Below are positions 1 through 4,002 of a stretch of DNA of 4,002 nt, in pieces. Each line of letters opens with the position of its first letter. Within the stretch, counting starts at the first letter, position 1. This DNA is from a virus. Taxonomy: Duplodnaviria > Heunggongvirae > Uroviricota > Caudoviricetes. The DNA lies in IMG/VR virus record IMGVR_UViG_3300029476_000064; one strand, given 5' to 3'. The notes beneath the pieces are model-generated. The model ran no database searches and had not been told where the DNA came from. It saw only the letters and a list, made by a program, of their open reading frames with translations. The position numbers and the translations under genes were made by a program.

Positions 1-636
1 GTTGCTGACGGGCGACTCGGAAATTTTTGGCGAAGAATCTAGGGCTGGCGCGGTCTGCATGGTGGTGGGCGACTCGGCTTTTTCGGCACCCTGAAGCATG
101 GCGTCGCGGCATCCGTCATACGCTTCTTTCATAGCATCACGCACCCATCCGACAGGTTTCTGCTCAGTCAACTCACACCATTTCTCGAATGTGGGCACAG
201 ATACCGGAACTGGCGGTGCTGCATAAAGCGCCTGACAACTCCAGCCAGACCAGTGAGCACCCTCCGCTCTCTCATCATCTTCAGGGCGAACAAGCGTGAC
301 TTCGCTCGGGTGTTTCCTGTGTGACCACAGCCAGGCTACGGTTTCGGCATTGGCTGGCTCTGGCGGGGCGGAGTAAAAATACTCATCCTCAATCCCATCA
401 ACGGGCTTTGAGAAGCCGATAAAATCACCATAATGCCAAGGATAGGGGCCGTATGGCTCAGAGGTCACACGACGCCACCGGTGAATGGCAGGCTCCGCTT
501 CGAGCGATGCCAGCGCGATACGCAGTGCCGCCAGCGTGTTGCTGTCGCCTTCGTCCAGACCGAACGGGATTTCATCTCTGGCTGCTTCCATGTCGGCAAT
601 TTTCTGCTGCAGCCATTGTTTGGTAATAGTGCTCAT
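1..636 (-). CDS. Hypothetical phage protein, 3' end beyond window (at least 211 aa visible)
   Basis: My own translation of the minus strand is open from 636 down to position 1. ATG at 636..634 is preceded by an AAGGAGAGG Shine-Dalgarno and overlaps the upstream stop (ATGA at 636..633). N-terminus reads MSTITKQWLQQKIADMEAARDEIPFGLDEGDS. Not in the ORF track, presumably because it is incomplete. I do not recognise the family. Confidence 0.55.
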   Translation of the reverse strand, partial: MSTITKQWLQQKIADMEAARDEIPFGLDEGDSNTLAALRIALASLEAEPAIHRWRRVTSEPYGPYPWHYGDFIGFSKPVDGIEDEYFYSAPPEPANAETVAWLWSHRKHPSEVTLVRPEDDERAEGAHWSGWSCQALYAAPPVPVSVPTFEKWCELTEQKPVGWVRDAMKEAYDGCRDAMLQGAEKAESPTTMQTAPALDSSPKISESPVSN

Positions 637-902
637 GATGCCTCTCCTTTACCGGATGCGGCGGCGATCAGCTTCTGCGCCTGCTGAATGTCAGGATTGC
701 CTGCAATCATCACTTCTGGCGCGTCACAGTCACCGCCAAGGTCAAGAATGCGCTCATGTCCGGTACGCAGGCAGGATTTGTATCCTGAAACCGTCTGCTT
801 GAGCGATTCGGTCAGCACAGCAATCCTCTGGTCTTTGGCTTCCAGCTCATCCAGCAGCGCCAGCACTGTGGCTGGGTTGGCTGCGGAGTTCAGCGCGTTC
901 AA
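633..902 (-). CDS. C-terminal segment of a small hypothetical protein; 89 codons from TTG at 902, probably the downstream part of a gene interrupted by an in-frame TGA
   Basis: ORF track entry starts at a TTG with no Shine-Dalgarno upstream. It is in the same frame as the 38-codon ORF at 930..1046, separated only by a TGA at 932..930 and nine sense codons. Stop at 635..633 overlaps the next ATG. Confidence 0.4.
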   Translation of the reverse strand: MNALNSAANPATVLALLDELEAKDQRIAVLTESLKQTVSGYKSCLRTGHERILDLGGDCDAPEVMIAGNPDIQQAQKLIAAASGKGEAS

Positions 903-929
903 GGCAGTGATATCTGCATCAAGCTGAGT

Positions 930-1046
930 TCATTCTGCCAGTGAGATATCGAAAATGTCATCAGGCGGCATAACACTAAGGCGCTCATGTGCACCAACTG
1001 CTGCCTCAGCGATTTCACGTAATGCGCGTTTGTCGATGTTGCTCAT
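930..1046 (-). CDS. Small ORF, 38 aa (MSNIDKRALREIAEAAVGAHERLSVMPPDDIFDISLAE); likely N-terminal part of the interrupted gene continuing to 633
   Basis: ATG at 1046..1044 with GGAGGA about 7 nt upstream; ATGA overlap with the stop of the 76-aa ORF. Ends at TGA 932..930. Below the ORF-track length cutoff; translated by hand. Confidence 0.4.
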   Translation of the reverse strand: MSNIDKRALREIAEAAVGAHERLSVMPPDDIFDISLAE

Positions 1047-1273
1047 TCTTCATCCTCCAACTCAGATACGGCGTCCATTACATCTGAGCCGCGAATGGTT
1101 TCGAATGCCACACAAGCCATTTCAAAGCACAGGCGCTCATGCGGGTGCGGAGATTGCCAATACTTGAAGCCAGGACGATGCGAATAGCCCTGCATCGCAT
1201 AAAACTCTCCGGCCAATTCAATGGCGGCATCCACCAGTTCACGGTTTGTCATTGGTTTGTCGATGTTGCTCAT
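1043..1273 (-). CDS. Small acidic hypothetical protein, 76 aa
   Basis: ORF track. ATG at 1273..1271 with AGGAGG 7 nt upstream; ATGA overlap with the upstream stop. Begins MSNIDK and carries an acidic C-terminal tail (SELEDEE). I do not recognise the family. Confidence 0.55.
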   Translation of the reverse strand: MSNIDKPMTNRELVDAAIELAGEFYAMQGYSHRPGFKYWQSPHPHERLCFEMACVAFETIRGSDVMDAVSELEDEE

Positions 1274-1470
1274 TGGGCGGCCTCCTGGATTAACTTTTCG
1301 AGAATGGCATCAAGGGCTTTCCGTTTTCCGATATACCCGCCACCAACCCACTCTCCACGAAGCAAGGCGTAATATTTCCCGTCGTCTTCGTGATACGGTC
1401 CTCGGATAGACCAGTCGGTTGTGATGGCGTCGATAGCCTTTTTAGTTTCTGCGAAATCCATCATGCTCAT
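1270..1470 (-). CDS. Small hypothetical protein, 66 aa (MSMMDFAETKKAIDAITTDW...)
   Basis: Internal ATG of the 85-aa track ORF at 1470..1468, preceded by GGGGGAGGG and forming an ATGA overlap with the ren stop. The longer start at 1527 would overlap ren by 60 nt and is less likely. Confidence 0.5.
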   Translation of the reverse strand: MSMMDFAETKKAIDAITTDWSIRGPYHEDDGKYYALLRGEWVGGGYIGKRKALDAILEKLIQEAAQ

Positions 1471-1760
1471 ACCCCTACCCTCCCCCAAACCATCAACACC
1501 CGCTTCATCGCGGCACTCTGGCGACACTCCTTAAAAATCAGGTTAGTGCTCACCTTTCCTTCCCGTTCTTCCCTGGTAGCGAATCTGTAATACACCGTTC
1601 GCCAGACCTTACCATCAATGACCAAGATTCCTGCCCGCGCCATTTTAGCCGCAGCCTGATTTATGCTGGTTACTGTTGCGCCTGTTACCGCGGCAACGTC
1701 CTGCGCACAGAAGCTCTTATGCGTCCCCAGGTAATAAATAATTGCCTCTTTGCCCGTCAT
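1467..1760 (-). CDS. ren: Ren protein (Rex-exclusion resistance), lambda-like
   Basis: The 97-aa translation (MTGKEAIIYYLGTHKSFCAQDVAAVTGATVTSINQAAAKMARAG...) closely matches lambda Ren as I recall it. Position directly after P with an ATGA overlap, as in lambda. AAGGAG Shine-Dalgarno upstream. Confidence 0.85.
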   Translation of the reverse strand: MTGKEAIIYYLGTHKSFCAQDVAAVTGATVTSINQAAAKMARAGILVIDGKVWRTVYYRFATREEREGKVSTNLIFKECRQSAAMKRVLMVWGRVGV

Positions 1761-2448
1761 ACACTTGCTCCTTTCAGTCCGAACTTAGCTTTGATTTCTG
1801 CGATCTTCGCCAAAGCCTGTGCACGATTTAAAGGTCTACCGCCCATGACAGGAAGTTGTTTTACTGGTTCAGGTATCGCCTCACCACGGTTAATTCGCGC
1901 GGTCATACAGGTCAGCTCATCGGCAGCTTTACGCCGTAATTCCGCGTCAGTCAGCGCATTGGCCCGCATGTTCTGGTACAGGTTGGTAACCAACCAGTAG
2001 TGCGCGTTTGATTTCCATGGATAAGACTCTGCGTCCGGATACAGGCCACGCTTCCGGCAATACTCGTAAACCATATCAACCAGCTCGCTGACGTTTGGCA
2101 GTCCGGNNNNNNNNNNNNNNNNNNNNNNNNNNNNNNNNNNNNNNNNNNNNNNNNNNNNNNNNNNNNNNNNNNNNNNNNNNNNNNNNNNNNNNNNNNNNNT
2201 TCCATCGTGGTGATCCCGTTTTCCCGAAAAGCCAGAACCCACTGGCGACGGATTTCGTTCACTTCGTTCTGGTCACGGTTAGCCAGGCTCGCCGGGAAAG
2301 TTGCCAGTAACTGGCTGAACACACCGTTGATGATCTGCGCTACCTGCTGTACCTGCGGCTTTTCGTCGTACTGTTCCGGCATGTTGTTGGCGATCCGACG
2401 CATCTGCTCACGGTCAAAGTTAACCATCTGTGCGGCGATGTTTTTCAT
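1757..2448 (-). CDS. P: Replication protein P (DnaB helicase loader), lambda-like; coding sequence interrupted by an N run at 2107..2199
   Basis: N-terminal track ORF (MKNIAAQMVNFDREQMRRIANNMPEQYDEKPQVQQVAQIING...ITTME) and C-terminal track ORF (GLPNVSELVDMVYEYCRKRGLYPDAESYPWKSNAHYWLV...GLKGASV) both match lambda P as recalled. The two track ORFs are in different frames because of the N run. ATG at 2448..2446 overlaps the O stop. Confidence 0.85.
2107..2199. other. Run of 93 N (gap or masked sequence) inside the P gene
   Basis: Seen directly in the sequence. The flanking P reading frames are out of phase across it, so 93 is probably not the true length. Confidence 0.95.
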
Positions 2449-3374
2449 AGATCCACCCCGTAAATCCAGTCTGTGTTTGTCAGGTCGAGTTTTGGTTTGC
2501 TGGCTGTCACGCCTGCCTGTTGCTTGTTACGGTTGATTTCGAGTTGGGTCCACTTATCGCGGAGTTTGGCCGGACTTAGCACGTTACCGGACCAGAAGTT
2601 GTCCTGGCATGCCCAGCGGAACAGCACGCACATGTCGCGGTGGTTACGTCCGTCACGTTCACGCATCAGGCGGATATCGTTAGCCCACCCTGCAAAATTC
2701 GGTTTTCTGGCTGATGGCGCGATGGTCTTCACCATGTCAAACATCCACTCTGCGGCGGTCAGGTCTTCTGCTGTCCCCCACCTGCTGCCGCTCTGAATTG
2801 CAACATCTGGTTTCTCCACAGGAAGATCGTTTTCTGGTTGGTCAGAGGATTCGCCAGAATTCTCGGACGAAAAAGGTTTTATATTGTCTTTTGTTAGTTT
2901 GTCTTTTGTGTTTACCTGATTCGGGTAAACGCCTTTACCTGATTTGGGTAAACTTTTCTTACCTGATTCAGGTAAATTTACCTCTTTCAGGTAAACTTTA
3001 TTTTTCTTACCTGATTCGGGTAATGTTGACCATTCACTGACCACATTATTAATGCCGATATTCCGCCCGCTCTGAATAAAAATCCCACGCTTTACCAGAA
3101 CACTTTTTGCAGCAGAACACTTGTGCGGCAATATCCCGGTCAACTCGGAAAGTTGCTCGTTGCTCACCCAATCCAGTTTTTTATTAAAGCCATATGTTTT
3201 GCGCATGACAGCCAGGAAGACCAGAAGCTGGTGCTGTGTTAATCCGGCCAGCATCACAGCTTCCAGCAACTCATTTGCAATGCGCGTATAACCATCATCG
3301 AGATCTGCCACATTACGCTCCTGTTTGGCAAAGTTACCTCTGCAGAAGTTGAGTATTTTTGCTGTATTTGTCAT
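2445..3374 (-). CDS. O: Replication initiator protein O, lambda-like C-terminal domain with a divergent N-terminal iteron-binding domain
   Basis: The 309-aa track ORF has a first ~27 aa and a C-terminal ~125 aa (SRWGTAEDLTAAEWMFDMVKTIAPSARKPNFAGWANDIRLMRERDGRNHRDMCVLFRWACQDNFW...TNTDWIYGVDL) that match lambda O as recalled. The middle differs. AGGAG Shine-Dalgarno upstream; origin iterons lie inside the gene. Confidence 0.9.
   Translation of the reverse strand: MTNTAKILNFCRGNFAKQERNVADLDDGYTRIANELLEAVMLAGLTQHQLLVFLAVMRKTYGFNKKLDWVSNEQLSELTGILPHKCSAAKSVLVKRGIFIQSGRNIGINNVVSEWSTLPESGKKNKVYLKEVNLPESGKKSLPKSGKGVYPNQVNTKDKLTKDNIKPFSSENSGESSDQPENDLPVEKPDVAIQSGSRWGTAEDLTAAEWMFDMVKTIAPSARKPNFAGWANDIRLMRERDGRNHRDMCVLFRWACQDNFWSGNVLSPAKLRDKWTQLEINRNKQQAGVTASKPKLDLTNTDWIYGVDL
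2875..2911. other. AT-rich region next to the iterons (candidate DNA-unwinding element of the origin)
   Basis: The stretch GGTTTTATATTGTCTTTTGTTAGTTTGTCTTTTGTGTTT is strongly AT-rich and lies immediately promoter-distal to the iterons, as in lambda ori. Confidence 0.5.
2912..3023. repeat. Replication origin iterons: five copies of a 17-bp dyad-symmetric repeat TTACC-N7-GGTAA inside the O gene
   Basis: Copies at 2912-2928, 2935-2951, 2959-2975, 2978-2994 (variant TTACCTCTTTCAGGTAA) and 3007-3023. They sit in the O linker region, the same place lambda carries ori, but the repeat sequence differs from the lambda iteron. Confidence 0.8.
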
Positions 3375-3377
3375 AAT
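3349..3377 (+). promoter_or_regulatory. pO-like promoter for oop RNA (-35 TTGAGT, 17-bp spacer, -10 CATAAT)
   Basis: TTGAGT at 3349-3354 and CATAAT at 3372-3377 on the plus strand. The flanking sequence is near-identical to the lambda pO/oop region as I recall it. Confidence 0.6.
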
Positions 3378-3384
3378 GACTCCT

Positions 3385-3462
3385 GTGGATTGATCCAGTA
3401 ATGACCTCAGAATTCCATCTGGATTTGTTCAGAACGCTCGGTTGCCGCCGGGCGTTTTTTAT
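3385..3462 (+). ncRNA. oop: oop antisense RNA, about 77 nt, overlapping the 3' end of cII on the opposite strand
   Basis: Sequence GTGGATTGATCCAGTAATGACCTCAGAATTCCATCTGGATTTGTTCAGAACGCTCGGTTGCCGCCGGGCGTTTTTTATT is near-identical to lambda oop as recalled. It has an internal ATCCAG/CTGGAT stem and ends at an intrinsic terminator. Confidence 0.7.
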
Positions 3463-3703
3463 TGGTGAGTCCATCAAGCGCATACTTAAAAGCCCTGCTA
3501 ATCGGACTGATGTCTGATGCCATTCCGAAAGCACACAAGACCGAAGCAATAAATCTCCAGTCCGTTCTGCTTATCTTCGATTCATGACAGCCAATCATCT
3601 TTGCCAGACCGCGCTGGGTAATAGCTGACAGATTGATAAGTAAATCTGTTTCTGCGCGATCAACGTCACGCTGTGATAGTTTGCTGTAACTTGTTCTTTC
3701 CAT
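3407..3703 (-). CDS. cII: Transcriptional activator CII; C-terminus identical to lambda CII, N-terminal part divergent
   Basis: The 98-aa track ORF ends ...LTNKKRPAATERSEQIQMEF, which matches the lambda CII C-terminus as recalled. The N-terminal region has the SKISR helix-turn-helix-like motif but differs from lambda. Position between the cro-like gene and O, with the 3' end overlapped by oop. Confidence 0.85.
   Translation of the reverse strand: MERTSYSKLSQRDVDRAETDLLINLSAITQRGLAKMIGCHESKISRTDWRFIASVLCAFGMASDISPISRAFKYALDGLTNKKRPAATERSEQIQMEF
3436..3460 (+). terminator. Intrinsic terminator of oop (lambda tO-like)
   Basis: Stem GCTCGG (3436-3441) pairs with CCGGGC (3448-3453) with one G-U, loop TTGCCG, followed by a T6 run at 3455-3460. 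Confidence 0.75.
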
Positions 3704-3788
3704 TTCTTAAGATTTCCAATAGTGAATAGTTAGTTGAAAGGTATGCGTGGAAACGCATATGGCCTTAGTTGGTCAGATATCTTGGAAC

Positions 3789-3834
3789 TCGCTTTTCAGC
3801 GACGTAGGACGAATGTCCGTTGTTACAAAGAGCG
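3789..3834 (-). promoter_or_regulatory. Candidate nutR-like antitermination site: boxA-like CGCTCTTTG plus boxB-like hairpin TCGCT-GAAA-AGCGA
   Basis: On the minus strand, CGCTCTTTGTAACAA (plus 3834-3820) resembles boxA (CGCTCTTA in lambda, TGCTCTTTAACAA in rrn). Downstream, TCGCTGAAAAGCGA (plus 3802-3789) is a 5-bp stem with a GAAA-type loop like lambda boxB. Location between the cro-like gene and cII matches lambda nutR. The boxA-to-boxB spacer is longer than in lambda. Confidence 0.4.
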
Positions 3835-3844
3835 GATCCGCTTA

Positions 3845-4002
3845 TTAAGCGGCTTTGTGTTCCGGCGGGAACACGTCATCAAGACTGACTTTTGCGCCTA
3901 ACTTGTTTAGGCACGCAACAAGAGCACGGCATGTTTTAAGGTCTGGGAAGCGACGACCAGATTCCCAATGTCCGATAGCTCCCTGTGTGCATCCAACTGC
4001 CT
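3845..4002 (-). CDS. Cro-like HTH (XRE-family) regulator, 5' end beyond window; 51 C-terminal codons visible
   Basis: My own minus-strand translation from 4000 gives AVGCTQGAIGHWESGRRFPDLKTCRALVACLNKLGAKVSLDDVFPPEHKAA, ending at TAA 3847..3845. The pattern matches the recognition helix and following helix of XRE-type HTH proteins. Same strand as, and immediately upstream of, cII, which is the cro position. Confidence 0.55.
   Translation of the reverse strand, partial: AVGCTQGAIGHWESGRRFPDLKTCRALVACLNKLGAKVSLDDVFPPEHKAA

Follow-up and report, generated by a model that had tools for sequence, protein, structure and literature searches.

It has been textbook knowledge since the 1970s-80s that lambdoid phages have module boundaries within cII and O, and that the DNA-binding domain of O is transferred together with its iterons. 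A 4,002-nt stretch of viral DNA (IMG/VR record IMGVR_UViG_3300029476_000064), referred to as the window in the following, raises the question from which parents such a mosaic replication region was assembled and at which point they were joined. A preliminary description placed recombination breakpoints inside the coding sequences of cII and O and likened the arrangement to the classical imm and ori hybrids of lambdoid phages. The comparisons reported here lead to the same interpretation and narrow it down. The cII-oop-O(ori)-P segment very probably belongs to a lambda-like temperate Escherichia coli phage or prophage and is a recombinant of two known lambdoid types.

Gene content of the window

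Read on the minus strand, the window presents the 3' part of a cro gene (cro'), cII, oop, O, which contains the origin, P, ren and a nin region. The following features were annotated:

3845..4000, minus strand: cro-like HTH repressor gene, 3' part, continuing beyond the window edge; weak PF01381 (HTH_3) match
3470..4002, minus strand: ev207-type immunity-side module (cro', intergenic region, cII codons 1-78); 533/533 identical to ev207, 40% to lambda
3407..3703, minus strand: cII gene, 98 aa; PF05269 (Phage_CII), E=7e-34, residues 1-92
3349..3466, plus strand: predicted pO promoter, oop antisense RNA gene and terminator tO, homologous to lambda oop
3289..3469: lambda-like block (last 21 cII codons, oop, pO, O ribosome-binding site, O codons 1-29); 175/181 identical to lambda, 181/181 to ev207
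2445..3374, minus strand: O replication initiator gene, 309 aa, hybrid; PF04492, residues 22-115
3289-3311: crossover interval, 23 bp, GTGGCAGATCTCGATGATGGTTA when read on the minus strand; codes for O V22-Y29, where the Pfam Phage_rep_O domain starts
2912..3288, minus strand: 4C10/SF-468-type O DNA-binding domain with iterons (origin-specificity cassette); 377/377 identical to Lambda_4C10 and SF-468, 47% to lambda
2911-2928, 2934-2951, 2959-2975, 2978-2994 and 3007-3023: five dyad-symmetric iterons TTACC-N7-GGTAA (repeat family D1)
2865..2911: A/T-rich zone adjoining the iterons; 36/47 identical to lambda, 47/47 to SF-468 and 4C10
2445..2864, minus strand: lambda-type O C-terminal domain, residues ~170-309; 98% nucleotide identity to lambda
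1757..2448, minus strand: P gene (helicase loader), split by an N run at 2107-2199; PF06992 on both halves
1467..1760, minus strand: ren-like gene of the SF-468 type; 100% identical to SF-468 ('protein ren'), 93% to lambda ren

The sequence features of a lambda-type O initiator with an intragenic origin were found: an N-terminal Phage_rep_O (winged-helix) DNA-binding domain (PF04492, E=1e-33, profile positions 2-95 of 95), the iteron array with its A/T-rich zone, and a lambda-type C-terminus. The iteron copies lie 19-29 nt apart, every one of them an inverted repeat, and the A/T-rich zone opens with a 12-nt block, ACACAAAAGACA, that is common to both O types. The start of P overlaps the stop codon of O, which is the lambda arrangement. 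The reading frame of P is lost only because of the scaffold gap, in which 93 N replace 103 bases of lambda, ev207, 4C10, SF-468 and a further contig, L005, described below.

The cII end of the segment has the layout of a putative antisense unit, in which a CII-family gene is paired with a convergent short RNA gene whose predicted promoter lies in the 5' end of O and whose terminator lies in the 3' end of cII. On the plus strand, a promoter-like TTGAGT-17-CATAAT with an upstream TG is located at 3349-3377, and a terminator hairpin at 3431-3458 is followed by a T tract. In lambda, the 77-nt oop RNA extends from 38675 to ~38599 and overlaps the last 55 nt of cII (PMC3349717). A scan of the whole window at E<=0.1 returned no Rfam family match for oop. 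Both pO and tO are intact and lie entirely on the ev207 side of the crossover interval. Since the junction in cII is situated 8 nt past the 3' end of the antisense oop, the lambda-like block corresponds to the tO-oop-pO unit plus the first O codons.

Identity to lambda along the window

Alignment with lambda (NC_001416) yielded a stepwise profile. Positions 3470-4002 are 40% identical, with no BLAST match, and are followed by 3289-3469, which correspond to lambda 38591-38771 at 96.7%. Identity is 47% over 2912-3288 (the O DNA-binding domain and five iterons), 77% over the A/T-rich zone (2865-2911), 98.0% over 2200-2864 (652/665) and 93.0% over 1494-2106; no lambda match was found for 1-1493 in this nucleotide comparison. 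The transitions are abrupt, each change taking place inside one 40-nt bin. The profile thus shows sharp switches (40/96.7/47/77/98%) and not the uniform divergence that had been named as the result speaking against mosaicism.

The coordinates assigned to the mosaic in the preliminary description, 2445-3703, enclose exactly the two genes cII and O. Its statement that the N-terminal part of cII and the O DNA-binding domain with its iterons do not resemble lambda agrees with the nucleotide identities of 40% and 47%. The last 20 residues of cII and the stop codon are identical to lambda and the remainder is a diverged homologue (43% overall), which accounts for the 21 lambda-matching residues originally counted. 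In an O protein alignment that took in lambda, 4C10 and ev207, 27 of residues 1-29 are shared with lambda, in keeping with the earlier estimate of ~27, and residues 30-168 are diverged, with a 10-residue insertion that constitutes the fifth iteron. The lambda-like C-terminus (residues 169-309, 137/141 identical) had been underestimated; it comprises ~141 residues, not ~125.

Two parents and a 23-bp crossover interval

The window is an exact two-parent recombinant of ev207 and SF-468 (Lambda_4C10-type O) sequences. Positions 3289-4002 are 100% identical to phage ev207 (NC_049949, Jouyvirus), with agreement at 658/658 parent-informative sites, and the identity from cro through O codon 29 is shared by ev017, PhiR57_1 and PhiR63_2. 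The cro' fragment itself is 100% identical to genes of ev207 and PhiR57_1 that are both annotated Cro. Positions 1-3311 are 100% identical to the prophage of E. coli SF-468 (NZ_CP012625), with agreement at 278/278 informative sites, 67/67 of them within the well-conserved O C-terminus, P and ren part. Lambda_4C10 (LR595861, Bievrevirus) is 100% identical over the O N-domain, the iterons and the A/T-rich zone.

Beyond the shared interval, the parents differ from the window in characteristic ways. The O DNA-binding domain and iterons of ev207 are lambda-type, and NinB follows ren. In SF-468 and 4C10, O is preceded by a YdaT-domain gene instead of cII/oop, is annotated as 339 aa and carries an N-terminal tail of its own, MANTAEIFNFPVPD... 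The window last differs from SF-468 at 3312 and first differs from ev207 at 3288, which leaves the 23 bp at 3289-3311. From cro to the A/T-rich zone, the parents have no other substring of at least 14 nt in common, and on either side of this block they are ~50% identical. It is identical in lambda, ev207, 4C10, SF-468 and epsilon34.

Among the three junctions, only the joint at O codons 22-29 is specific to the lineage of the window. The cII/oop and iteron/A/T-rich junctions are older module boundaries, unchanged from the two parents. The former (3469/3470) is already present in ev207 and many Stx-phage cII genes, and the latter (2865-2911) in SF-468, Lambda_4C10 and 44% of complete E. coli genomes. 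The 4C10-type O DNA-binding cassette was counted in 2396 of 5426 complete E. coli genomes (44%), and the 5' part of cII in 1415 of the 5426 (26%).

An identical 309-aa hybrid O is encoded on an independent, gap-free ENA metagenome contig, L005 (k119_62410). This contig is ev207 with a ~1.25-kb patch of the SF-468 type, whose left joint is the same as that of the window and whose second crossover lies in 60 bp of identity inside P. At the location of cro', it carries a complete 71-aa HTH gene. Positions 1-2106 of the window are linked to the remainder only across the scaffold gap at 2107-2199, which adjoins the second crossover interval of L005. Because this linkage crosses the N run, the right arm beyond P could come from a different co-resident prophage.

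Probable mechanism of the exchange

The left arm, from cro and cII through the antisense oop unit and pO to O codons 1-21, comes from an ev207-like phage. A prophage resembling SF-468/Lambda_4C10 supplied the right side, which starts with the O winged-helix DNA-binding domain, its five cognate iterons and the A/T-rich zone and continues with the C-terminal domain of O, P, ren and the nin genes. The arms were very probably joined by homology-dependent exchange within the 23 bp of perfect identity, the sole usable identity to the left of the origin. The joint has the form expected of short homology, each flank being identical to a different parent.

A phage annealase of the Red-beta (Rad52-like) type, not RecA, would probably have catalysed this step. 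Mosaics of this kind between lambda and prophages have been shown to arise through Rad52-like recombinases of phages (PMC3945230; PMC2327257), and exo, bet/RecT-like and gam modules are annotated in the records of both parental types, the annealase of ev207 being RecT-like; the part of the recombinant that would hold such genes lies outside the window. Efficient pairing takes at least 23-27 bp with Red-beta and at least 31-34 bp with RecA (PMC3945230). With 23 bp, the joint lies within the Red-beta range, at its very bottom.

A real exchange of another kind, either by host RecA acting on two resident prophages or by illegitimate end-joining with subsequent selection, seems rather unlikely, although it carries some weight. 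Given modules found in 44% and 26% of E. coli genomes, many cells would hold both prophages for long periods, and the 60 bp of identity at the second crossover of L005 is usable by RecA. The segment that RecA needs for pairing is, however, longer than the 23 bp available at the shared joint, and Red-type recombinases are 10-100-fold better on diverged substrates (PMC3945230). The position of the joint exactly within the sole identity block argues against homology-independent joining.

The hybrid replicon should be functional, because co-adapted parts stay together. Thus cII remains next to the antisense oop and pO, the DNA-binding domain of O next to the iterons that belong to it, and the C-terminal domain of O next to P. 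Relative to the origin donor, only the 21-residue N-terminal tail of O is exchanged.

Occurrence and authenticity of the joint

Exact 52-mer and permissive 45-mer junction probes gave 0 matches to the joint among IMG/VR viral contigs, GTDB representative genomes and JGI metagenome contigs. A 161-nt junction probe found no place with >=80% coverage in 5,426 complete E. coli genomes. The joint was also not found among 50,697 phage records, in which the best match over the first 115 O residues did not exceed 89.6% identity. Other 309-aa proteins of the same 90% cluster were considered as further cases of the joint and rejected, all sampled ones having a 4C10-type tail. As the joint is missing from every large collection searched, the recombination event is rare. 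Both modules are common in E. coli, and their joint is rare.

The physical continuity of the joint rests on two assemblies, the window and L005. It is very improbable that an assembler merged two co-occurring lambdoid prophages at 3289-3311 and produced a molecule that does not exist. The scaffold gap indicates that the assembly was scaffolded and probably metagenomic, JGI/IMG and one ENA contig are the only known sources of the exact O protein, and modules that are common in E. coli could share one sample. Yet neither a de Bruijn nor an overlap assembler could cross from one parent to the other over just 23 shared bases between flanks of ~50% identity, and the identical joint recurs in L005, a gap-free contig whose name indicates k=119. 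The two are not the same sequence, because one base and the whole region to the right of P differ.

Still less credible is an origin without any recombination, in which uneven selective constraint conserved patches such as oop/pO and the P-contacting O C-terminus in an anciently diverged homologue: the 3' end of cII is indeed doubly constrained by the antisense oop RNA and the terminator (PMC3349717), cII and the O N-domain are recognisable lambda homologues throughout and the VADLDDGY motif is kept at the protein level in distant O genes, but synonymous sites are conserved as well (96.7-98% nucleotide identity) beside segments of 40-47%, in distant O genes the synonymous positions of the motif do vary (13-17/23), so that constraint alone leaves the nucleotides unfrozen, and two different sequenced parents, each 100% identical to the window on its own side of a single point (658/0 and 0/278 informative sites), refute this origin for the 3289-3311 joint.

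The 23-bp block as a possible linker

The block at the first winged-helix codons of O may conceivably be a 'linker' of the Botstein type, a crossover site kept identical at the nucleotide level, but this is quite doubtful. It is the same at all seven synonymous positions between O types that are ~50% identical on both sides. A linker function is supported by phage epsilon34, in which a third natural joint falls at the block: the sequence to its left is P22/HK97-like and that to its right is lambda-type. If the block did serve as a linker, origin-specificity cassettes made up of DNA-binding domain and iterons would be swappable between early regions of the cII/oop type and the YdaT type.

Two related ideas found no support. 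A frequent crossover hot spot is unsupported by the flanks of 120 IMG/VR contigs that contain the exact 23-mer (lambda/lambda 62, 4C10/4C10 55, other/lambda 3, lambda/4C10 0, the last being the combination of the window). Family-wide constraint of the block at the nucleotide level is unsupported as well; phiES15, mEp237 and Gifsy-2 keep the motif and match at 13-17 of 23 nt only. Both observations also speak against the linker reading. A GATC site is included in the block.

Comparison with known lambdoid hybrids

The gene order and overlaps of the window are those of lambda (NC_001416, 38360-40283), P is 93-98% identical, and in both the origin, made up of iterons and then an A/T-rich zone, is placed within O. 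The lambda iterons are four in number and of the TCCCTC type, whereas the window has five of the form TTACC-N7-GGTAA and an O that is longer by 10 residues. Further differences are the diverged alleles at cII residues 1-78 and O residues 30-168, and an unrelated nin region downstream of ren.

Lambda imm21, lambda imm434 and the lambda/P22 hybrid hy106 (rep-P22) have their joints at the same module boundaries as the window. In imm21 the joint lies inside cII just left of oop, and in the lambda/P22 hybrid it falls within pO, where the replication gene begins (PMC3349717). In these classical hybrids, too, origin specificity moves with the DNA-binding part of the initiator. They are laboratory constructs or selections with other alleles, whereas the joint of the window is natural and 55-77 nt deeper in O, at codons 22-29. 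The mosaics that lambda and defective prophages form through relaxed homologous recombination (De Paepe et al., 2014, PMC3945230; Martinsohn et al., 2008, PMC2327257) likewise contain a prophage-type segment of 100% identity bounded by short identities in diverged DNA. The patch-type double crossover of L005 is of the same kind.

With both alleles common in E. coli, the window represents ordinary textbook phage mosaicism and offers little that is new in principle. Its value is that of a clean natural case, with two parents of 100% identity, a crossover resolved to 23 bp at the lower Red-beta limit and a second contig in which the same cassette appears as a double-crossover patch. It illustrates how origin specificity can change without disturbing the cII/oop switch or the O-P interface, and the two parents could readily serve as substrates for measuring how natural lambdoid phages recombine over short homologies.

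Gene content and stepwise identity to lambda

All genes of the window lie on the minus strand, in the same order as in lambda, and a plus-strand promoter-like site and a terminator are found between the O start and the cII end.

Features of the window
3845-4000, minus strand: cro-like HTH gene fragment
3407-3703, minus strand: cII, 98 aa, PF05269
2445-3374, minus strand: O, 309 aa, PF04492 across residues 22-115
~1757-2448, minus strand: P, PF06992 on each half, broken by 93 N at 2107-2199
1467-1760, minus strand: ren-like gene
several small non-lambda ORFs, minus strand, including an Ead/Ea22-like fragment
3349-3377, plus strand: promoter-like site TTGAGT-17-CATAAT, between O start and cII end
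3431-3458, plus strand: terminator hairpin and T tract, between O start and cII end
2911-3023, within O: five dyad-symmetric iterons TTACC-N7-GGTAA

The two plus-strand elements are predicted and would correspond to lambda pO-oop-tO; in lambda, oop starts at 38675, is 77 nt long and covers the final 55 nt of cII (PMC3349717). The window was compared with lambda (NC_001416) by BLAST and a five-way MAFFT alignment.

Nucleotide identity to lambda along the window
3470-4002: cro', cII codons 1-78, 40%
3289-3469: equivalent to lambda 38591-38771, 96.7% (175/181)
2912-3288: O DNA-binding domain and iterons, 47%
2865-2911: A/T-rich zone, 77%
2200-2864: O C-terminus and P 5' part, 98.0%
1494-2106: P 3' part and ren, 93.0%
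1-1493: nin region, without lambda match

Uniform divergence is clearly absent and identity changes in sharp steps. As the preliminary description had proposed, the end of cII, the oop/pO stretch and the start of O are lambda-like, with the final 20 residues of cII identical and 27 of 29 matching over O residues 1-29, and the cII N-terminal part and the O DNA-binding domain with its iterons are not lambda-like. From residue 30 to 168, O is diverged, with 10 inserted residues that constitute the extra iteron. The lambda-like O C-terminus is real and needs the sole numerical correction, since it spans about 141 residues (137/141 match over residues 169-309) instead of 125. Together with the two-parent match described below, these steps bear out breakpoints inside cII and O of the classical hybrid-phage kind; the mosaic is real and was rightly interpreted. 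The intermediate A/T-rich zone ends (window 2865; last clustered mismatch at lambda 39165) just where the lambda record has misc_recomb features, at 39157^39158 and 39165^39166 (L001 2158-2167), whose note fields are empty.

The stretch 3' of ren (1-1493) contains SF-468-type small ORFs instead of the lambda nin genes: besides the Ead/Ea22 fragment, there are ORFs of 85 and 76 aa and an open-ended one of at least 212 aa without a Pfam match. No phage record among the matches listed covers this stretch. The Ead/Ea22-like ORF (633-1046, minus strand, PF13935) is broken by an internal stop near 903, and the record of E. coli SF-468 lists the identical copy as a pseudogene, also with an internal stop.

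Two parents and a 23-bp crossover block

The window is a recombinant of two parents, one like Escherichia phage ev207 (NC_049949) and the other like the prophage of E. coli SF-468 (NZ_CP012625). Wild lambdoid phages that have been sequenced contain 100%-identical copies of every non-lambda module: ev207, ev017, PhiR57_1 and PhiR63_2 share the cro-cII 5' block, and Lambda_4C10, 4A7, 1W, 3W, Perceval and PhiR47_2 the O N-domain/iteron block. Some prophages in complete E. coli genomes, the one in SF-468 among them, are 100% identical over window 1-3311, where the match ends. In the alignment, the window agrees with ev207 at 658/658 sites that separate the two parents left of the joint and with SF-468 at all 278 such sites to its right, 67 of them in the well-conserved O C-terminus/P/ren part.

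Since the last SF-468 difference lies at 3312 and the first ev207 difference at 3288, the crossover is confined to a block of 23 bp, GTGGCAGATCTCGATGATGGTTA. Lambda, ev207, 4C10 and SF-468 all have this block unchanged, and it encodes O V22-Y29, precisely where the Pfam Phage_rep_O domain begins. The parents share no other substring of at least 14 nt between cro and the A/T-rich zone, and therefore any homology-dependent exchange left of the origin must fall in this block; identical runs of 40-131 bp occur only rightward, in the O C-terminus, P and ren.

Independent evidence for the joint

The reality of the joint was judged from independent assemblies. The exact 309-aa hybrid O has just two recorded sources, JGI/IMG, where the window presumably comes from, and one ENA contig (L005, ERZ27272305 k119_62410; 5,192 bp, without N). 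This contig is 100% ev207 at 1-3128, SF-468 type at 3129-4378 (one mismatch) and ev207 once more from 4319 onward (one mismatch); it therefore represents ev207 with an SF-468-type patch of ~1.25 kb, from O codon 29 to about P codon 117-136, a double-crossover replacement of an 'origin cassette'. Its left joint is the 23-bp joint of the window and its second crossover falls in 60 bp of identity inside P (4319-4378). An ev207 allele occurs at 3998, within the patch. Against the window, L005 shows one difference in the 1,803 bases left of the N-run and 43 in the 613 bases to its right, which makes it a different sequence. That the joint is an assembly chimera is very improbable, because an assembler could not create it from parents with only 23 identical bases there and ~50% identity on both sides, and because the gap-free L005 contains the same joint.

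The N-run at 2107-2199 is 93 N long, against 103 bases in each of lambda, ev207, 4C10, SF-468 and L005, and the P reading frame therefore looks shifted; most likely the run is a scaffold gap of estimated size. It corresponds to L005 4218-4320, adjoining the second crossover interval. Window 1-2106 is therefore linked to the remainder by scaffolding only, a caveat that leaves the region of the finding (2445-3703) untouched.

Relative age of the junctions

Only the junction at 3289-3311 is lineage-specific. Both ev207 and, at 97% identity, many Stx-phage cII genes already have the cII junction (3469/3470, lambda 38591); it lies 8 nt past the oop 3' end, and thus the lambda-like block consists of the tO-oop-pO unit and the first O codons. 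The post-iteron junction, composed of the 12-nt common ACACAAAAGACA, a 77% zone and 98% identity from 2864, already exists in SF-468 and 4C10. Unlike in the window, the O-type gene of these two stands behind a YdaT-domain gene, not behind cII/oop, and its product has a different N-terminal tail. In Lambda_4C10 (L004 3825-4844) and SF-468 (L002 2848-3867) this gene is annotated as 339 aa, overlapping the upstream YdaT-domain gene. An internal ATG after GGGAGG lines up exactly with the start of lambda O and yields a product of 309 aa, a start that many database entries adopt; the longer annotation is probably too long. The 100% identity of phage D2 (OM475427) to the 4C10-type O N-domain stops after 160 nt (window 3129-3288), beyond which D2 diverges, and E. 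coli GF31 keeps just 151 nt of it, adjoining ybcN. Both may point to more breakpoints or deletions within the DNA-binding domain itself.

The block as a module boundary and its frequency

In Salmonella phage epsilon34 (L131, ~position 160), the exact 23-mer is flanked on the left by P22/HK97-like sequence (22/60 identical to the window) and on the right by a lambda-type O N-domain (58/60 identical to lambda), and represents another natural joint at the same block. Three IMG/VR contigs with an 'other/lambda' flank pair have an epsilon34-like arrangement and share GGAGCGTAAT directly before the block. Matches to the 23-mer number 22 in SEN34, 20 in P22 and Klebsiella RCIP0034, 19 in SEN22, 17 in Gifsy-2, 15 in phiES15 and 13 in mEp237. 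The motif V/M-A-D/E-L/V-x-D/N-G-Y/F is kept in all these O genes while the nucleotides vary, and the family as a whole is therefore under no constraint at nucleotide level. That the closer enterobacterial types are perfectly identical here would fit repeated exchange ending at the block, without proving it.

The O N-domain/iteron module occurs in 2,396 of 5,426 complete E. coli genomes (44%) and the cII 5' module in 1,415 (26%). Their joint was found in none of the 5,426 (161-nt junction probe, no place at least 80% covered), and 52- and 45-nt junction probes had no match in IMG/VR, GTDB representative genomes and JGI metagenome contigs. No phage record exceeded 89.6% identity over O residues 1-115. 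The 120 IMG/VR contigs with the exact 23-mer have lambda/lambda (62), 4C10/4C10 (55) or other/lambda (3) flanks and never lambda/4C10. From the empty joint searches and these flanks it follows that the recombinant is rare.

Lambdoid phages have their origin in mid-O, with iterons and an A/T-rich region (PMC7466680), and joints of hybrid phages lie left of oop in cII (imm21) or inside pO (lambda/P22) (PMC3349717). The window presents the same picture, with its origin in mid-O and joints inside cII and O. This kind of feature is long known and the recombinant is an ordinary member; the particular recombinant is new to the databases searched.

Proposed mechanism and consequences of the exchange

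The minimal efficient pairing segment is 23-27 bp for Red-beta and 31-34 bp for RecA, and lambda gains prophage DNA through diverged homology via Rad52-like phage recombinases (De Paepe et al., PMC3945230). Red does likewise on diverged sequences (Martinsohn et al., PMC2327257). With exo-bet-gam annotated in both parental types, we infer that the 23-bp block was the site of an exchange of the Red type. The partners could have been two prophages, or else an ev207-like phage in lytic growth and the SF-468-type prophage of its host cell; the right-hand exchange would lie beyond the window, or inside P as in L005.

Judged from its sequence, the recombinant would keep three co-adapted pairs intact. 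The first is cII with oop and pO; all of pO is left of the joint, and 37 nt separate its putative -35 hexamer from the left edge of the joint (3312). The second pairs the O DNA-binding domain with its own iterons, and the third pairs the C-terminal domain of O with P. Compared with the donor of the origin, just the 21-residue tail of O has been exchanged.
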